Shown piece after piece: positions 1 through 8,193 of a stretch of DNA of 9,589 nt. Numbering within the stretch: position 1 is the first letter of the stretch; each line of letters starts with the position of its first letter. Both the position numbers and the translations under genes were made by a program. Location of the stretch: IMG/VR virus record IMGVR_UViG_2563366982_000003; one strand, written 5' to 3'. Source of the stretch: a virus (taxonomy: Duplodnaviria > Heunggongvirae > Uroviricota > Caudoviricetes). The notes under the pieces are model-generated. The model worked only from the letters and a program-made list of their open reading frames with translations, did not search any database and was not told the DNA's origin.

Positions 1-131
1 TTCACCCATCGCGTCATTGTGGAAAGGCCGACATCCATAGCGCTGGCTGCATCTGCCACGGTGTAATTCTGGTCAACGACCAGTTGAGCGGATTCGCGTT
101 TAAACTCTGCGCTGAAATTTCTTTTTTTCAT
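1..131 (-). CDS. IS911-like transposase OrfA (InsN-like), N-terminal part, truncated by the window edge
   Basis: ATG at 131-129 (minus strand); translation [43 protein letters not shown]..., in a different frame from the annotated 100..798 ORF tail. Recognised from memory of IS911 orfA. Confidence 0.7.
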
Positions 132-203
132 TATGGCACCTGTGTTGTTCTGAGGTGAGCATATCACCTCTGTTCAGGTGGCCAAATTCAGTAAACCACT
201 TCA
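1..203 (-). mobile_element. IS3-family (IS911-like) insertion sequence, partial: left terminal repeat and 5' part of orfA; element continues beyond the window start
   Basis: Minus-strand sequence from 203 downward reads TGAAGTGGTTTACTGAATTTGGCCACCTGAACAGAGGTGATATGCTCACCTCAGAACAACACAGGTGCCATA-ATG, an IS3-family-type end (TG...) followed about 70 nt later by an ORF beginning [43 protein letters not shown], which I recognise as IS911 OrfA (HTH N-terminus). Boundary at 203 inferred from the TGAAGTGG terminus. Not checked against ISfinder. Confidence 0.75.
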
Positions 204-798
204 CACTGCACAGTGATGCTGTCCGGCGATCAATTATCTGGTGCAATACCACCTGCTCGTTTTTCGTCTCCCGCTGAACGCCTATTTCATCCAGGACCAG
301 CAAATCAACCCCGCAAAGCTCCTGTAAAAATTTTTCCCCGGATTTGCCGTTGTCGTAACTGTCATGCAACACGCTCATGACGTCAGACACGGTGACGATA
401 ATCACGCTGCGCCCCTTCACCATCAGCCGGTTGCCCATCGCCGCTGCAAGGTGATTTTTCCCGGTGCCGGTTTTACCGCTGAACACAAAATTCGTGCACC
501 CGGTCATCAGTTCGTCAGCTATGGATTTGGCCTGGCTCAGCGCGTATTTTTGCCCGTCGTTCTGCACCTGATAATTTGCAAACGAGCATTTGCTGTGCAG
601 AGGCTGGATGCCCGAACGATTCAGGATTTTTTCCACCCGCAACTGGCGATTCTGGCGGTTAATCTCCTCGCTGCGTTTTCGTCCTTCAGCAAGTTGCCAT
701 TCCCGCCACTCCTCCACCGTCCGGTACGGTGGAACCGACCCCTGTGGTGCAAGTCTGCGAATACGTTCAAGAACCCCAACTGCCGCAATGTTTTTCAT
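100..798 (-). CDS. DnaC-like replicative helicase loader (AAA+ ATPase); native reading frame ends near 204, the last ~35 codons (100-203) are IS-derived read-through, so the gene is 3'-truncated by the IS911-like insertion
   Basis: 232-aa ORF with Walker A ([15 protein letters not shown]) and Walker B (DLLVLDEIG) and a DnaC-like layout (...[17 protein letters not shown]...); SD-like GGGGGTG upstream of the ATG at 798; the C-terminal tail [15 protein letters not shown]... is encoded by the IS terminal repeat. DnaC homologs carry about 45 more residues after the DRR(S/T) motif. Confidence 0.75.
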
Positions 799-1789: not shown

Positions 1790-2215
1790 TTAGTGCATCA
1801 CCACAGCATTCCCTGCCGGGCCGCCGCGATTCATCTGGTCATACAAAACAACCGCTGACGCAACAAAATCATCGACATCCTTCACCAGCCGATCCCTCCG
1901 TTCGACGATCTCACGGTAATATTCAGAACTGTGGCTGCGCATACGGGCCACCAGCAAAGGCGGCATCGCCTTTTCGATCGCCGGTAACAGAGCCTGCATT
2001 TTTTCAACAGCATCAGGGGTGTCTTTATCCAGCCAACGGAAAATTTTCTGGGTATTACGGGCCAGGGCTTCCGGATGGCTGTCGTCATACAGTTCCGGGA
2101 ACGTCATTCCCAGCTCGAAATACGCTTTGGTAATTTTCGCAGCCGGTACTTTTTCGCCGTCCGGATGCGCCCAGACATTCATCGCCATGCGGATGTGTTC
2201 ATGCTTGATTTTCAT
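1790..2215 (-). CDS. ydaT: YdaT-family protein (CII-like regulator / putative toxin family of Rac-type prophages)
   Basis: 141-aa ORF beginning MKIKHEHI..., matching my memory of the YdaT family N-terminus and size (~140 aa); start ATG overlaps the upstream gene stop (ATGA at 2212-2215), implying translational coupling with the ydaS-like gene. Confidence 0.65.
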   Translation of the reverse strand: MKIKHEHIRMAMNVWAHPDGEKVPAAKITKAYFELGMTFPELYDDSHPEALARNTQKIFRWLDKDTPDAVEKMQALLPAIEKAMPPLLVARMRSHSSEYYREIVERRDRLVKDVDDFVASAVVLYDQMNRGGPAGNAVVMH

Positions 2216-2514
2216 GAATCAACTCCATCAGATAAGCATGTACTACAATCACCTTCAGCATGAACTACATGTGTTTGCCCCAAACGAATGCCGCTCGCAT
2301 ACTCAGGCCAAATAAGCTCCCAATCATGGGGTCGTAGCTCCGCCCTACTTACTTGGCCTTCCGTCGCAGATTCGATCATAAGGGCGCGGGTTGGAGATAT
2401 AGCTGTTCGTCCAGACGCCATTTGCGATAAGTAAGATGGCGATACACCAAGTCTGGCCGCGAATTTCTTAGCATCACCAACCCTTAATGATTTAATAAAC
2501 TCTTTTAATGTCAT
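2212..2514 (-). CDS. ydaS: YdaS-like Cro-type HTH DNA-binding protein (Cro analogue of the switch)
   Basis: 100-aa ORF; HTH signature KKFAARLGVSPSYLSQMASGRTAISPTRALMIESATEGQVSRAELRP; SD GAGGAAGG 4-12 nt upstream of the ATG at 2514; divergent from the regulator gene at 2612. Confidence 0.7.
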   Translation of the reverse strand: MTLKEFIKSLRVGDAKKFAARLGVSPSYLSQMASGRTAISPTRALMIESATEGQVSRAELRPHDWELIWPEYASGIRLGQTHVVHAEGDCSTCLSDGVDS

Positions 2515-2611
2515 ACCTTCCTCGGTTTAGTGTTTTTTTGCGAGTTTAGTGTTTAATAAACCATTAAGTCAAGTATTTGCTTGTTTAGTGATTACTAAAG
2601 ATAATTACCAC
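2515..2611. promoter_or_regulatory. Divergent promoter/operator region between ydaS-like (minus) and paaR2-like (plus): repeated heptamers GTTTAGT/GTTTAAT and palindromes, candidate -35/-10 elements for both directions
   Basis: GTTTAGT at 2525-2531, 2544-2550, 2583-2589; GTTTAAT at 2551-2557 with complement AATAAAC at 2555-2561; perfect dyad TTTAGT-GATT-ACTAAA at 2584-2599. Candidate plus-strand promoter: -35 TTGCTT (2577-2582), 17-bp spacer, -10 GATAAT (2600-2605). Candidate minus-strand promoter: -35 TTGACT (complement of 2567-2572), -10 TAAACT (complement of 2543-2548). A further TTTAATAAAC copy lies at 2491-2500, inside the first codons of ydaS. Confidence 0.55.
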
Positions 2612-2983
2612 ATGCAAAAAAAAGAAATTCGCCGTTTACGTCTCAAGGAGTGGTTTAAAGATAAAACTCTGCCACCCAAAGAGAAGAGCTACCTATCTCA
2701 ACTAATGAGTGGGAGAGCCTCGTTTGGAGAAAAGGCTGCCAGAAGAATAGAGCAAACATACGGGATGCCGGAAGGGTATCTGGATGCGGAATACGCAGAA
2801 CAACCGGGGGTTTCTCCACCACATGCAGGGTTAACGTCTAATCAACTGGAATTATTGCAGATTTTTTCAGCCTTCCCTGAGGATGAGCAACGCCAGATAA
2901 TCAGCGAGTTAAAGCAGAAAAAAGAATCAATGGAAGATCTCATAGCGAGATGGATTGCGGCGCAAAAATGCCGCCGCGCCTGA
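2612..2983 (+). CDS. paaR2: HTH (XRE/cI-type) transcriptional regulator of the three-component ParE toxin-antitoxin module; occupies the cI position of the prophage switch (PaaR2-like)
   Basis: 123-aa ORF from ATG 2612 (the track's 2549 start is a GTG lying inside the operator repeats, with no SD); HTH region LSQLMSGRASFGEKAARRIEQTYGMPEGYLD; no peptidase S24 domain; directly upstream of the antitoxin/toxin pair. Symbol from memory of the E. coli O157:H7 paaR2-paaA2-parE2 system; the paralogous paaR1 module cannot be excluded without alignment. Confidence 0.6.
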   Translation: MQKKEIRRLRLKEWFKDKTLPPKEKSYLSQLMSGRASFGEKAARRIEQTYGMPEGYLDAEYAEQPGVSPPHAGLTSNQLELLQIFSAFPEDEQRQIISELKQKKESMEDLIARWIAAQKCRRA

Positions 2984-3003
2984 GTTATAAAACCGGAGGA
3001 AAC

Positions 3004-3195
3004 ATGAATAGAGCCCTTTCACCAATGGTTTCTGAATTTGAAACCATTGAACAAGAAAACAGTTACAACGAATGGCTGCGTGCGAAAGTAGCAACGAGCC
3101 TTGCAGATCCGCGCCCAGCAATTCCCCATGACGAAGTTGAGCGCAGAATGGCAGAACGCTTTGCTAAGATGCGTAAGGAACGGAGCAAGCAGTAA
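3004..3195 (+). CDS. paaA2: Small antitoxin of a ParE-family toxin (PaaA2-like, 63 aa)
   Basis: 63-aa ORF MNRALSPMVSEFETIEQENSYNEWLRAKVATSLADPRPAIPHDEVERRMAERFAKMRKERSKQ from ATG 3004 with SD GGAGGA at 2995-3000; stop TAA at 3193-3195, 1 nt before the toxin ATG. Size and operon position match the PaaA2 antitoxin as I recall it from the literature. Confidence 0.7.
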   Translation: MNRALSPMVSEFETIEQENSYNEWLRAKVATSLADPRPAIPHDEVERRMAERFAKMRKERSKQ

Positions 3196-3196
3196 A

Positions 3197-3475
3197 ATGT
3201 TACCCGTGTTATGGCTTGAAAGCGCAGATACCGACCTAGATGATATAACTAGTTATATTGCTCGTTTCGACATAGATGCGGCTGAACGCTTATGGCAGCG
3301 ATTAAGGGGTTGTGTGCTGCCGTTATCCGAACATCCGTATTTATACCCACCAAGCGACAGAGTACCTGGCTTGCGTGAGATTGTAGCCCACCCTAACTAT
3401 ATAATTCTATACCGCGTAACAACATCAAGCGTTGAAGTAGTAAACGTGATCCACGCAAGACGCCAGTTTCCCTAA
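3197..3475 (+). CDS. parE2: ParE/RelE-superfamily toxin (ParE2-like)
   Basis: 92-aa ORF from ATG 3197: MLPVLWLESADTDLDDITSYIARFDIDAAERLWQRLRGCVLPLSEHPYLYPPSDRVPGLREIVAHPNYIILYRVTTSSVEVVNVIHARRQFP, with the characteristic ParE C-terminal pattern (...YRV...V.V..H.RR..). The track's 3101 start overlaps the antitoxin and is rejected. Confidence 0.8.
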   Translation: MLPVLWLESADTDLDDITSYIARFDIDAAERLWQRLRGCVLPLSEHPYLYPPSDRVPGLREIVAHPNYIILYRVTTSSVEVVNVIHARRQFP

Positions 3476-3559
3476 CTTTCACTACCAATAGAAACATAAC
3501 AACCGCAACGACTTTATCAAAAGCGTTGTGTTTGTTATGCCCCGCGGTTTAGTTTTTAC

Positions 3560-3590
3560 TTGACTTAAGTTTAATGTTTATTAAACTAAA
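3560..3590 (+). promoter_or_regulatory. Candidate repressor-controlled promoter of the dicB-type operon: -35 TTGACT, operator palindrome GTTTAAT-GTTT-ATTAAAC, -10 TAAACT
   Basis: -35 TTGACT 3560-3565; 16-bp spacer; -10 TAAACT 3582-3587. A perfect 7-bp inverted repeat with 4-bp spacer (3569-3586) fills the spacer and -10 and is near-identical to AGTTTAGTGTTTAATAAAC at 2543-2561 in the divergent switch region. The stretch TTGACTTAA-GTTTA..TTAAAC is shared by both loci. Confidence 0.5.
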
Positions 3591-3766
3591 AATACCAACC
3601 CACCCCGCCCCACAGAACGCAGGGAAATACTTCGAGTTACCCGGCAGTGGTCAGGGGTTAAGTAGCCAGCCCGAGGCGTATGAACATGACGGCGGGAACA
3701 CTTTGTATAACAGCGCAGCAGGTTTTTTGTTCCGCTACCCCGGCGTTAAGGGGAAATGAGGTCAAC

Positions 3767-3919
3767 ATGGATACGCTCAATCTTGGCAACAACGAATCTC
3801 TGGTATGCGGTGTGTTCCCTAACCAGGACGGCACCTTCACCGCGATGACGTATACCAAAAGTAAAACGTTTAAAACCGCAGCTGGTGCGCATCGCTGGTT
3901 AGCAAGAAACACTGACTGA
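3767..3919 (+). CDS. ydfA: YdfA-like small prophage protein (first gene of the dicB-type operon)
   Basis: 50-aa ORF from ATG 3767 (MDTLNLGNNESLVCGVFPNQDGTFTAMTYTKSKTFKTAAGAHRWLARNTD) with SD GAGG at 3758-3761; the track's longer 3680 start lacks an SD. Size and position match Qin ydfA as I recall it. Confidence 0.6.
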   Translation: MDTLNLGNNESLVCGVFPNQDGTFTAMTYTKSKTFKTAAGAHRWLARNTD

Positions 3920-3930
3920 TGAGGTTGACG

Positions 3931-4269
3931 ATGGAATTTAAAGATTTACCTCCTTCAATCCAGGAGATTGCAGCACACACACTTCGTCATCGTCTGAACG
4001 AACTTGAATTGGAATCGGTAACAAAAAAAGACACTGATAATATGGCTCGCAATGTGCGCGATGCGTTTACTGGGCTGTTTTCAGATACAGCTTTAAATAT
4101 CCATGGCACAGAGGATACAGCAAAACAATTTGCAGAAAAAGAAGTGGAAGATCCCAGTTCAAAGAGCCAGAAACAGCCAAACAACCATGAAATTAACGAA
4201 CTGCTTCTGGCAACAGGCTTCATAAATATTAACGAATATGAACGCCGTAAAAAAATGTTATCTGATTAA
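3931..4269 (+). CDS. Hypothetical prophage protein of the dicB-type operon (possibly the intact counterpart of Qin ydfB plus ydfC)
   Basis: 112-aa ORF from ATG 3931 (MEFKDLPPSIQEIAAHTLRHRLNELELESV...) with SD GAGG 3921-3924; an alternative ATG at 3919 overlaps the ydfA-like stop. No recognisable domain; acidic/Lys-rich C-terminal half. Confidence 0.5.
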   Translation: MEFKDLPPSIQEIAAHTLRHRLNELELESVTKKDTDNMARNVRDAFTGLFSDTALNIHGTEDTAKQFAEKEVEDPSSKSQKQPNNHEINELLLATGFININEYERRKKMLSD

Positions 4270-4452
4270 TCCATCAAGATATCTTTTTAGCATCAGCGTT
4301 TCTACGTTATTAAAACCATCAGATTTTAACATAGCTTCGATTCGCTGATTTAAATTGCCAACTAACTGTTGATACTGAGTAGATGGAAGCATGTGTACCA
4401 GCTCCTTGAGAACACAATAACATGCACCAAGTTTTAACTCCTGCTCTGACAT
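4258..4452 (-). CDS. Candidate small protein gene (64 aa) antisense to the dicB-operon transcript, in the gap between the ydfB/C-like gene and DicF
   Basis: ATG at 4452-4450 preceded by a consensus SD (GGAGGA-taaa-ATG); translation MSEQELKLGACYCVLKELVHMLPSTQYQQLVGNLNQRIEAMLKSDGFNNVETLMLKRYLDGLIR; AT-rich codon usage (TTA, AGA, CTT). No plus-strand ORF of comparable quality exists between 4270 and 4790. No homolog recognised. Confidence 0.35.
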   Translation of the reverse strand: MSEQELKLGACYCVLKELVHMLPSTQYQQLVGNLNQRIEAMLKSDGFNNVETLMLKRYLDGLIR

Positions 4453-4791
4453 TTTATCCTCCATTGAGGTTACTGGTTGAGAATGGAAACCTCTCGTGAC
4501 AGCGTGTGGTCGTGCGCCGGACACGGATAAGAATCCGGCACTGACAGTTTACTGAAAGGATATTTCCCTGAAAAGTCAGACCATAACGCGAAAGCGTACG
4601 GCGAGGTAGCTGGTTCATAGATAGCCTGTCGTTAAATTTTCGTCGACCGTGCGCTTCCGGTTGTGGCAATCCGCGAAATGGCGCGGCGGTAAGTATGGCG
4701 GGGTTATTCCTTCCCCCGTTGAGGACACCGGGTTGTCAGGTTGACCATACGCTTAAGTGACAACCCCGCTGCAACGCCCTCTGTTATCAAT

Positions 4792-4848
4792 TTTCTGGTG
4801 ACGTTTGGCGGTATCAGTTTTACTCCGTGACTGCTCTGCCGCCCTTTT
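4792..4848 (+). ncRNA. dicF: DicF small regulatory RNA (ftsZ-targeting sRNA of Qin-type prophages), including its 3' stem and U-tract
   Basis: Sequence TTTCTGGTGACGTTTGGCGGTATCAGTTTTACTCCGTGACTGCTCUGCCGCCC + TTTTT matches my memory of the 53-nt DicF RNA; GGCGG (4807-4811) / CCGCC (4839-4843) pairing followed by a T-run gives a rho-independent 3' end; lies 180 nt upstream of the dicB ATG as in the Qin dicB operon. Exact 5' end not determinable from sequence. Confidence 0.75.
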
Positions 4849-5027
4849 TAAAGTGAATTTTGTGATGCGGTGAATGCGGCTGAGCGCACGCGGAACAGTT
4901 AAAGCAGTAAGGCGGTCTTTTACTGGCGTAACGAGCATCAACTAACCCGGCGTTAATTGTTAACTGGTTAACGTCACCTGGAGGCACCAGGCACTGCATC
5001 ACAAAATTCATTGTTGAGGACGCGATA

Positions 5028-5216
5028 ATGGAAACGTTATTACCAAACGTTAATACGTCTGAAGGTTGTTTTGATATTGGTGTTCTGCTCAGTAACCGGG
5101 AGTTTACTGAAGATGCCATTAATATGAGGAAATATGAGCCTTATCTGCTCAATGATAATTCCATACTTTCCCGAATTGCTCTTCTTGAACTTGGTATTTT
5201 CGGAGAGCGTCAATGA
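5028..5216 (+). CDS. dicB: Cell-division inhibitor DicB
   Basis: 62-aa ORF METLLPNVNTSEGCFDIGVLLSNREFTEDAINMRKYEPYLLNDNSILSRIALLELGIFGERQ; matches DicB in length and N-terminal sequence (M-TLLPNVNTSEGCF...) as recalled; SD GAGGA 5016-5020; follows DicF. Confidence 0.85.
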   Translation: METLLPNVNTSEGCFDIGVLLSNREFTEDAINMRKYEPYLLNDNSILSRIALLELGIFGERQ

Positions 5217-5401
5217 CTTCAGCATTTGCACTGATGATGACGGTTTTTCTTATAACGGGTGAATCACAGAATGTGATTACCGGAATTTATGCCAGTAAAG
5301 AATCCTGCCTCCAGGCAAGAGACGAGCAAAAAATTTCTGGTGAATGCCTCCCGGTAAAAAAAGTATCGCTGTACCTGAATAACGAAACACCGGCTGGATA
5401 A
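5213..5401 (+). CDS. ydfD: YdfD-like small membrane protein (Qin-type prophage lysis/toxicity protein)
   Basis: 62-aa ORF with start ATG overlapping the dicB stop (ATGA at 5213-5216); hydrophobic N-terminal segment FALMMTVFLITG, consistent with a single transmembrane helix; position matches ydfD after dicB. Confidence 0.7.
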   Translation: MTSAFALMMTVFLITGESQNVITGIYASKESCLQARDEQKISGECLPVKKVSLYLNNETPAG

Positions 5402-5493: not shown

Positions 5494-6055
5494 ATGAGCA
5501 CTGATAAAGAAGAATTTGCGCTATATTGCGAAGCAAAAAATGACAAAGTCAGAAAACGTCTGGGAATTAAAGGTGGTTTTTACTGGACTACAGCAAAAAA
5601 ATTATCTGTTGCCATCTCCCGCTGCATTACCGCAATGGATGACAACGATTATGATGAAGACGACTTTAAAAAACCCGTTCGCGTCCATTTACCCGTTGTG
5701 AATGACCTTCCACCTGAAGGCGTGTTTGATACCGAATTCTGCAACCGATACGAAAAAGGCGGGGAAGATGGCATTACAATGGTATTTATCGCGCCCTCTC
5801 CCTCCGTGCAGGAGAAACCAGCCAGTACTGACAATACCAACGTCAACGGCGAAGACATGACGGAGATTGAGGAGAATATGCTCCTGCCGGTTTCTGGTCA
5901 GGAGCTGCCCATTCGCTGGCTTGCGCAACACAGCAGCGAAAAACCAGTAACGCACGTTGCACGGGAAGAACTTCAGGCATTACATATAGCACGGGCGGAA
6001 GAACTGCCGGCTGTTACTGCCCTGGCCATTTCTCACAAAACAAAGCTGCTCGACC
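5494..6055 (+). pseudogene. RecE-like (exodeoxyribonuclease VIII family) prophage exonuclease gene, N-terminal fragment, interrupted by an IS21-family insertion
   Basis: ORF from ATG 5494 (SD GAGG 5482-5485); the track ORF 5494..6105 reads 50 nt into the IS terminal repeat before a stop. Deleting 6056-8193 (IS plus one repeat copy) rejoins this frame exactly to the frame open from 8193 to the window end (...HKTKLLD|[24 protein letters not shown]...). Assignment to the RecE family is from recalled similarity of the N-terminal region and the synteny after dicB/ydfD. Confidence 0.6.
6049..6055. repeat. Left copy of the 7-bp direct repeat (CTCGACC) flanking the IS21-family element: putative target-site duplication
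   Basis: CTCGACC at 6049-6055 immediately before the IS terminus TGTCA; identical heptamer at 8187-8193 immediately after the other terminus. Confidence 0.55.
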
Positions 6056-6115
6056 TGTCAACGCCACGATGTTTGACCGTTATTTGCCATTTTCATGCCC
6101 GCTAAGATACTTTCG

Positions 6116-8085
<1,970 letters not shown>

Positions 8086-8186
8086 GTTGATGTCCTTTCT
8101 GGTGTGAGAACCTTAAGGAAACAACATGTTGGGTGGAGCGGACAATCCAAATGGTGAATTACCGTCTTATATCACTGGCGCTGACA

Positions 8187-8193
8187 CTCGACC
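8187..8193. repeat. Right copy of the 7-bp direct repeat (CTCGACC) flanking the IS21-family element
   Basis: See left copy; only removal of the IS plus exactly 7 bp restores the exonuclease reading frame. Confidence 0.55.

Follow-up and report, generated by a model that had tools for sequence, protein, structure and literature searches.

A near-identical copy of the CP-933P/Sp12 immunity switch, with its paaR2-paaA2-parE2 operon, in an IS-interrupted Escherichia coli prophage

The locus described here matches a published Escherichia coli prophage switch almost base for base and is not new. It lies in a stretch of viral DNA of 9,589 nucleotides (IMG/VR record IMGVR_UViG_2563366982_000003), referred to below as the window. 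Between positions 2150 and 3693 the window differs from prophage Sp12 of strain Sakai at only four bases (2241, 2811, 3174 and 3540), none of which lies inside the control sites OR, OL/PL or OM. Sp12 is termed identical to CP-933P of strain EDL933 (PMC8630535), and the experimental papers on this very system describe a bistable CI/Cro/CII-like switch that carries an addictive toxin-antitoxin pair (Jurenas et al. 2021, PMC8630535; Prolic-Kalinsek et al. 2023, PMC9986795). An earlier, sequence-only reading of the window had matched the locus to the paaR2-paaA2-parE2 module of an O157:H7 cryptic prophage, facing a ydaS-ydaT pair, and had judged it probably described rather than new. The identification was correct, the minus-strand pair being of the CP-933P type, as seen from the identities to PDB entries and the four nucleotide differences from Sp12, and so was the judgement, the locus being reported in PMC8630535. 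It is nearly certain that the locus represents the immunity region known from lambdoid prophages of the CP-933P/Sp12 type, carried by an E. coli ATCC 25922-type prophage, and that it works as the published switch. Gene order, protein identities and the identity of operators and promoters were read from the window itself, while what is said of binding, of repression and activation, of bistability and of post-segregational killing relies on published work with a sequence four bases different. The features are the following.

805-1767/1782: intact O-like replication initiator gene, its product matching that of Sp12 at 316/320 positions
1790-2215, minus strand: ydaT, CII-analogue activator of 141 aa (Pfam YdaT_toxin, E = 2.8e-10)
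2205-2222, no strand assigned: OM, primary operator of YdaT, TTGATTTTCATGAATCAA, centred on the ydaS/ydaT junction
2212-2514, minus strand: ydaS, Cro-analogue HTH regulator of 100 aa (Pfam YdaS_toxin, 46.5 bits, and HTH_3)
2515-2611, no strand assigned: OR control region, 97 bp, containing repeats of the GTTTAGTAA type and two diverging promoters, PR and PRM
2543-2572, minus strand: PR-type promoter for ydaS-ydaT, TTGACT-18-TAAACT, from a consensus scan
2577-2605, plus strand: PRM-type promoter, TTGCTT-17-GATAAT, read directly from the sequence
2612-2983, plus strand: paaR2, CI-analogue repressor of 123 aa without S24 peptidase domain
3004-3195, plus strand: paaA2, antitoxin of 63 aa (Pfam PF21217 PaaA2, 70.7 bits, cut-off 27)
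3197-3475, plus strand: parE2, ParE-family toxin of 92 aa (Pfam PF05016 ParE_toxin, 60.9 bits, cut-off 23, full-length)
3495-3539, plus strand: imperfect long hairpin 3' of parE2, candidate operon end (inverted repeat I2)
3542-3587, plus strand (rightward): OL operators and PL-type promoter, TTGACT-16-TAAACT at 3560-3587, from a consensus scan
4793-4844: DicF RNA
5028-5216: dicB

The products of ydaT, ydaS, paaR2, paaA2 and parE2 are 99-100% identical to O157:H7 proteins of solved structure, and these reading frames are therefore not chance ORFs. Gene order and spacing are those of CP-933P/Sp12, as are OR, OL/PL and OM; the ParE2, PaaA2 and YdaT proteins are identical, whereas PaaR2 carries the change G67V and YdaS the change A92T. 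Both variants presumably behave as the reference proteins. The sequence-only reading had ydaS, the 97-bp region, the regulator, the antitoxin and the toxin correctly placed. The span that it gave to the switch, 2212-3475, does hold these genes but is too short, since the switch extends to ydaT and OM on one side and to the second operator/promoter set at 3542-3587 on the other. The ydaT gene sits just outside that span, on its left.

On the minus strand, residues 2-141 of YdaT are 100% identical to O157:H7 YdaT (PDB 8bt1, 140/140) and YdaS is identical at 99 of its 100 positions to PDB 8c7k ('Phage antirepressor protein Cro'), the sole difference, A92T, being located in the C-terminal tail. 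Both proteins score above the curated Pfam cut-offs, YdaS in YdaS_toxin/HTH_3 and YdaT in YdaT_toxin. The start of ydaT and the stop of ydaS overlap by ATGA. The OM operator matches the published consensus 5'-TTGATTN6AATCAA-3' exactly and is the only site within the window to do so with no mismatch; its sequence is that of Sp12 and its position at the end of ydaS agrees with PMC9986795.

On the plus strand, the first 66 residues of PaaR2 are identical to the PaaR2 N-terminal domain (PDB 7nkv/8c3k, 66/66). Over its full length the protein is identical to ECs_2279 of Sakai Sp12 at 122 of 123 positions, and V67, the one difference, falls at the junction directly after the crystallised N-terminal domain. 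The mass computed for the window PaaR2 with a His6 tag, 15,123.1 Da, exceeds that published for intact EDL933 PaaR2-His6, 15,081 Da, by 42 Da, which is explained by the Val-for-Gly change of the alignment. Neither another tag nor removal of the initiator Met explains this gap, given the published N-terminal sequence MQKKE and the G67V change. No Pfam family was matched by the regulator at E <= 0.01, and it is for this reason assigned no S24 peptidase domain, as had been proposed from the sequence. The lack of a Pfam match did not leave it an 'unknown', since comparison with the solved structures and with the Sakai gene settled its identity as PaaR2. Beyond weak similarity of residues 71-119 to DicA, the C-terminal part gave no signal. 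The missing C-terminal S24 domain places PaaR2 outside the lambda CI/LexA-type family of autocleaving repressors, even though it acts like CI; the peptidase motif is also absent according to PMC8630535. Lacking an autocleavage domain, PaaR2 is not SOS-cleavable (PMC8630535).

The antitoxin is 100% identical to PaaA2 over the crystallised chain (PDB 3zbe/5cw7, 62/62) and matched no HTH or RHH family in the Pfam scan; its gene departs from Sp12 at a single, synonymous position, 3174. The check proposed earlier for the 3197-3475 product, similarity to ParE, returned 92 of 92 residues identical to ParE2 (PDB 5cw7_B), and the Pfam scores listed above likewise bear out the 63-aa antitoxin and the ParE-family toxin. 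The paaR2 and paaA2 genes share a strand and are separated by 20 nt, paaA2 ends with its stop at 3195 and the parE2 ATG begins at 3197, and co-transcription of the three genes is taken from the literature. With paaR2 first, as anticipated for the HTH regulator, then a PaaA-type antitoxin without DNA-binding domain adjacent to and upstream of a ParE-family toxin, the operon is a three-component PaaR-PaaA-ParE system. The O157:H7 paralogue paaR1-paaA1-parE1 (Hallez et al. 2010, ref. 8 of PMC8630535) is reported to have the same three-gene architecture and protein families. The window holds system 2 and not system 1, because its proteins are identical to the '2' paralogues. Downstream of parE2, the hairpin at 3495-3539 folds as RNA at -21.3 kcal/mol (z = -3.6) and has no canonical U-tract, so that it is a putative terminator. 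For proteins identical to those of the window, ParE2 was reported to be toxic, PaaA2 to neutralise it, and post-segregational killing to be protease-dependent (PMC8630535 and its ref. 8). In single-cell work, ParE2 activity was detected in neither state of the switch (PMC8630535).

The sites expected of a CP-933P-type switch are all present: a 97-bp OR with repeats, a second OL/PL beyond the operon and a YdaT operator. The length of OR equals the published intergenic length, every base is the same as in Sakai Sp12, and the repeat family was recovered at 2520-2600. A search with the GTTTAGTAA half-site, allowing two mismatches, gave 44 matches against 22 expected and is too loose alone; the assignment of the OR repeats rests on the Sp12 identity and on the repeat families and not on this search. 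OL shares with OR both direct (D1, D2) and inverted (I1, I5) repeats, and OL/PL is identical to Sp12. The hexamers of PR and PL are the same (TTGACT/TAAACT), in agreement with PMC8630535. PRM stayed below the threshold of the promoter consensus scan, its -35 matching the consensus at 3/6 positions, and was placed by hand using the published +1; its failure to reach the threshold fits the weak basal activity reported for it. The -10 hexamer of PRM ends 6 nt upstream of the paaR2 ATG, which implies a leaderless mRNA. 5' RACE and N-terminal sequencing (MQKKE) were done on the identical Sp12/CP-933P sequence (PMC8630535).

By analogy with the published system, PaaR2 would be the CI analogue, produced from the leaderless PRM mRNA and heading an operon that runs into paaA2 and parE2. 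The Cro analogue YdaS would compete with PaaR2 for the same repeats in OR and in OL/PL, about 1 kb apart. PaaR2 would mainly shut PR (ydaS-ydaT) and PL while stimulating PRM at a low level, YdaS would mainly shut PRM, and their mutual repression would yield two heritable states. For the EDL933 locus, bistable heritable states were shown with single-cell reporters, carried on a plasmid and not in chromosomal single copy, and either PaaR2 or YdaS repressed PL933P about 100-fold (PMC8630535). YdaT, the CII analogue, is predicted to bind TTGATTN6AATCAA at the ydaS/ydaT junction and to turn on a PRE-type promoter, which would provide a second transcription route to paaR2-paaA2-parE2. PaaA2 would neutralise ParE2 through direct binding; upon loss of the locus the labile antitoxin would decay and ParE2 would kill the cell. 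Such killing would make paaA2-parE2 an addiction module stabilising the immunity region.

The database names invite another explanation, in which two independent toxin-antitoxin modules, paaR-paaA-parE and YdaS/YdaT, stand back to back with no phage-type switch, PaaR being the detached DNA-binding half of an antitoxin. Pfam speaks of 'YdaS_toxin' and 'YdaT_toxin' and RefSeq of 'toxin YdaT family protein', YdaS shows a weak, sub-threshold similarity to HigA antitoxins, and PaaA2 has no DNA-binding domain, which makes a split antitoxin conceivable (discussed in PMC8630535). Against this, no toxicity was found for CP-933P YdaT (PMC8630535); YdaS and YdaT were shown by experiment to be DNA-binding regulators, and their toxin label is disputed (PMC8630535, PMC9986795). 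The footprints of PaaR2 and YdaS overlap on the operators, both proteins repress PR, PRM and PL, and YdaT activates PRE (PMC8630535). YdaT is a POU-type DNA binder (PMC9986795) whose exact operator is present in the window, OL adds a further set of operators beside the operon, and the genes sit between the O/dnaC-type replication block and the early-left block driven from PL. Two independent modules, which the published assays already contradict, are highly improbable.

The flanks of the locus raise the question of decay. Bases 1-202 of the window are the end of ISEc52, of the IS3 family, which truncates the dnaC-like gene, and a complete IS21 of 2131 bp (6056-8186), with a 7-bp target duplication CTCGACC, splits a recE-like exonuclease gene. 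The sequence-only reading had the replication and recombination genes lost to IS insertions, which holds for these two and not for the O-like gene, which is intact. CP-933P itself is described as cryptic (PMC9986795), and the flanking IS elements could mark a dead prophage in which neither expression of the switch and toxin-antitoxin genes nor selection on them persists. We consider this very doubtful, because each of the five ORFs is intact and has a single substitution at most, all operators and promoters are unchanged, an intact parE2 requires an intact and expressed paaA2 for cell survival, and the same 2-kb region is covered to at least 80% in 591 of 5426 complete E. coli genomes (~11%), which points to maintenance; moreover, CP-933P is also defective, yet its switch is functional (PMC8630535). 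As a separate observation, the sequence holds nothing against the immunity switch as an explanation.

The layout is that of phage lambda, with a repressor gene divergent from a cro-cII-like pair and upstream of O/P-type replication genes, a leaderless repressor mRNA, two accessory genes co-transcribed behind the repressor and a second operator/promoter on the far side of the operon. It had been proposed that the toxin-antitoxin operon occupies the cI position; this is true of paaR2, but paaA2-parE2 correspond to the position of rexA-rexB (PMC9986795). In contrast to lambda, OR consists of four 18-bp repeats and not of three operators (PMC8630535). The window proteins are also not homologous in sequence to CI, Cro or CII, PaaR2 is without the S24 autocleavage domain, and a ParE-type toxin-antitoxin pair replaces rexAB.

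As in prophage Qin of K-12, the downstream left operon of the window carries a DUF1391 gene, the DicF RNA and dicB, which we take to be the layout of the Qin dicB operon. The position of paaR2 is that of dicA in the dicA-dicC switch of Qin (PMC8630535), and the C-terminal part of PaaR2 is weakly DicA-like. As in Rac of K-12 (racR-ydaS-ydaT), a ydaS-ydaT pair faces the repressor. Unlike the window, Qin and Rac are not known to carry toxin-antitoxin genes behind their repressors. The Rac YdaS and YdaT are only 26% and 31% identical, respectively, to the CP-933P proteins (PMC8630535). The similarity of the window to Sp12 stops at ~3694, where the PL-proximal genes of the window are the DUF1391 gene followed by DicF and dicB, and the genes under PL control therefore differ from those of the published strain. 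The dnaC-like protein of the window, IS-truncated, is also just 86% identical to that of Sp12. Sp12 adjoins ynfA/speG, whereas the ATCC 25922 version of the window's prophage adjoins potC.

The IS-disabled dnaC-like and recE-like arms, the untouched switch and toxin-antitoxin pair and the Qin-type genes next to PL suggest a further reading, in which the PaaR2/YdaS switch is mainly a host-level toggle setting the expression of a cell-division inhibitor in a subpopulation, within an immunity region stabilised by the toxin-antitoxin pair. We think this unlikely; if it were true, the intact island between IS-hit flanks would be a natural example of the proposed toxin-antitoxin stabilisation. The intact cassette between IS-hit blocks is anecdotal, and it fits the published proposal of an immunity region protected by its toxin-antitoxin pair. 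In terms of discovery the locus carries little weight, being a near-identical allele of an experimentally dissected locus in a different prophage background. It is a well-dissected case of a phage lysis-lysogeny switch with a toxin-antitoxin pair built in, for which the RefSeq labels are uninformative or misleading (paaR2 'hypothetical protein', paaA2 'RelB family antitoxin', ydaT 'toxin'). No complete E. coli genome carries both IS insertions, the best coverage of the whole window being 76%; the 2-kb cassette was found in prophages inserted at differing sites and in a single deposited phage genome.

The layout proposed by the sequence-only reading, a ParE toxin-antitoxin operon in the cI position of a YdaS/YdaT-type switch, was recovered with the same coordinates and sizes by ORF listing and direct reading:

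100-798, minus strand: dnaC-like AAA+ gene
805-1782 (805-1767 with the start annotated in relatives), minus strand: O-like replication initiator gene
1790-2215, minus strand: ydaT (Pfam YdaT_toxin, 40.9 bits)
2212-2514, minus strand: ydaS (Pfam YdaS_toxin, 46.5 bits, and HTH_3)
2515-2611: 97-bp gap between ydaS and the regulator gene
2612-2983, plus strand: regulator gene paaR2, 123 aa
3004-3195, plus strand: paaA2, 63 aa (Pfam PaaA2, 70.7 bits)
3197-3475, plus strand: parE2, 92 aa (Pfam ParE_toxin, 60.9 bits)

The start of ydaT and the stop of ydaS share an ATGA overlap. The Pfam assignments of YdaT, YdaS, PaaA2 and ParE2 all exceed the curated cut-offs, and the ParE membership expected of the 3197-3475 product was borne out over its full length. 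A Pfam search with the product of the regulator gene matched no family; the regulator therefore lacks an S24 peptidase domain, as had been read.

At the sequence level, comparison with solved structures is decisive in identifying the locus as the paaR2-paaA2-parE2/ydaS-ydaT system. ParE2 is identical to 5cw7_B (92/92), PaaA2 to 3zbe and YdaT to 8bt1; over residues 1-66 the regulator does not differ from the N-terminal domain of PaaR2 (7nkv/8c3k, deposited as 'Phage repressor protein CI') and YdaS matches 8c7k ('Phage antirepressor protein Cro') at 99 of 100 residues. The switch and toxin-antitoxin system of the window are thus already known; what had been observed is confirmed and its interpretation, including the paaR2-paaA2-parE2 identity, is supported. 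The DNA was aligned with prophage Sp12 of E. coli O157:H7 Sakai (genes ECs_2277 to ECs_2281), described as identical to CP-933P, its EDL933 counterpart (PMC8630535). Window 2150-3693 differs from Sp12 at four positions:

2241: YdaS A92T, in the C-terminal tail
2811: PaaR2 G67V, directly after the crystallised N-terminal domain
3174: paaA2, synonymous
3540: intergenic, at the 3' edge of the 3495-3539 hairpin

G67V is also seen at the protein level, PaaR2 being identical to its Sakai counterpart at 122 of 123 residues. The intact mass of EDL933 PaaR2-His6 is 15,081 Da (PMC8630535) and that computed for the window protein with His6 is 15,123.1 Da, an offset of 42 Da, as expected for valine in place of glycine. 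The mass comparison independently confirms full-length PaaR2 identity and the single substitution.

The control elements lie on both sides of the operon:

2572-2543, minus strand: PR-type promoter, TTGACT-18-TAAACT (promoter consensus scan)
2577-2582 and 2600-2605, plus strand: PRM, TTGCTT and GATAAT with a 17-bp spacer (read by hand)
3495-3539, between the parE2 stop and OL: imperfect hairpin with 21-bp arms, -21.3 kcal/mol, z = -3.6 (RNA fold and inverted repeat searches)
3560-3587, plus strand: PL-type promoter, TTGACT-16-TAAACT (promoter consensus scan)

The divergent control region OR is the same as in Sp12 at every one of its 97 bp. Repeat and half-site searches found in it GTTTAGTAA-type repeats, which have been described there (PMC8630535). 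Only 6 nt separate the end of the PRM -10 hexamer from the ATG at 2612, a position that fits the leaderless start and N-terminal sequence MQKKE reported for paaR2 (PMC8630535). A second operator set accompanies PL just past parE2, about 1 kb from OR. Its promoter hexamers are those of PR, and it shares direct (families D1 and D2) and inverted (pairs I1 and I5) repeats with OR. This set is PL933P/OL, the PL and second operator of CP-933P; its region shows no difference from Sp12. PL933P is repressed about 100-fold by PaaR2, and likewise by YdaS (PMC8630535). The primary operator of YdaT, 5'-TTGATTN6AATCAA-3' (PMC9986795), is matched perfectly at 2205-2222, with the ydaS/ydaT junction at the centre of the site; no other perfect match occurs in the window. 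The hairpin has no canonical U-tract adjacent and may be an operon terminator or an RNA-stability element.

At the EDL933 locus, PaaR2 and YdaS have overlapping footprints on OR, and either protein can repress both PR and PRM. The effect of PaaR2 is stronger on PR and PL, and at low level it stimulates PRM; that of YdaS is stronger on PRM. Competition between the two results in two heritable expression states (PMC8630535). Between ydaS and ydaT lies a PRE-type promoter that YdaT turns on (PMC8630535, PMC9986795), giving an alternative transcript of paaR2-paaA2-parE2. PaaA2-ParE2 stabilised an unstable plasmid through post-segregational killing (PMC8630535) and is proposed to keep the immunity region from being lost or replaced. 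We infer that these steps would carry over from the near-identical EDL933 locus to the window allele. With paaR2 leading the operon, expression of the repressor is coupled to that of the toxin-antitoxin pair at the level of transcription, as the sequence-only reading had argued. Database names alone would instead make the locus two unrelated toxin-antitoxin pairs, a reading that both the published assays of the regulators and the arrangement of operators in the window contradict. Reading the locus as a dead relic is likewise at odds with its intact ORFs, with its unchanged control elements and with the expressed paaA2 that an intact parE2 demands.

Compared with lambda, paaR2 replaces cI and paaA2-parE2 replaces rexA-rexB (PMC9986795). 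PaaR2 is CI-like in function but falls outside the CI/LexA family, because it has no S24 domain and does not respond to mitomycin C (PMC8630535). Against NCBIfam NF007257, its residues 71-119 show a weak similarity to the C-terminal region of DicA, the repressor of Qin, that falls well short of the cut-off (E = 1.1e-6). The similarity agrees with paaR2 occupying the position of dicA in Qin (PMC8630535) and hints that PaaR2 has its oligomerisation region in common with DicA-type repressors.

With the IS elements set aside, the window from 203 to 9589 matches a prophage adjoining potC in E. coli ATCC 25922 at 99.98-100% identity. The insertions and the genes downstream of PL are as follows:

1-202: ISEc52 end (IS3 family), 100% identical to many copies
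3767-3919: DUF1391 gene (Pfam), 50-aa product, first after PL
4793-4844, plus strand: DicF antisense RNA (Rfam RF00039, 76.7 bits)
5028-5216, plus strand: dicB (correspondence with the ATCC 25922 annotation)
5213-5401, plus strand: DUF1482 gene
6056-8186: complete IS21, 2131 bp, 100% identical to E. coli plasmid copies
6116-6916, minus strand: istB, within IS21
6913-8085, minus strand: istA, within IS21

The claim that replication and recombination genes had been lost to IS elements holds for two genes. ISEc52 has entered the dnaC-like gene towards its 3' end and cuts it after about 199 codons; the gene product runs on into the element and loses its native C-terminus. IS21, flanked by the 7-bp target duplication CTCGACC (6049-6055 and 8187-8193), splits a recE-like exonuclease gene that runs from 5494 to beyond 9589; Exonuc_VIII is the Pfam match of its N-terminal portion (5494-6105). 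The claim fails for the O-like gene, which is intact (316/320 identical to the Sp12 protein). The two insertions occur together in no complete E. coli genome of the collection, where the best window coverage was 76%.

Near-identity to Sp12 breaks off abruptly at about 3694, a mosaic joint; downstream of PL, Sp12 has uncharacterised ORFs where the window has the DUF1391 gene, whose product resembles that of Qin ydfA. Because DicF, followed by dicB and the DUF1482 gene, lies downstream of PL in the same orientation, the PaaR2/YdaS switch may gate DicF/dicB-type cell-division inhibitors in this prophage.

The 2-kb immunity cassette is widespread (at least 80% covered in 591 of 5426 complete E. 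coli genomes). The prophage carrying it adjoins ynfA/speG in Sakai but potC in ATCC 25922, and the dnaC-like proteins of these two strains are 86% identical; such differing flanks around a conserved immunity module are typical of lambdoid mosaicism. In the 40-kb genome of Escherichia phage Evi (LR597642.1), a record deposited as phage, the entire ydaT-ydaS-paaR2-paaA2-parE2 cassette is present at 3641-5326 with 98.3% identity, so that the module is not confined to records labelled cryptic prophages. Relative to the window, the OR region of Evi has a single base change, and a further one falls just inside paaR2; its parE2 is intact (92/92) and unannotated. In the ATCC 25922 locus (L001, 12091-13776), RefSeq names paaR2 'hypothetical protein', paaA2 'RelB family antitoxin', ydaT 'toxin YdaT family protein' and ydaS 'transcriptional regulator', product names that are uninformative or misleading for a characterised system.
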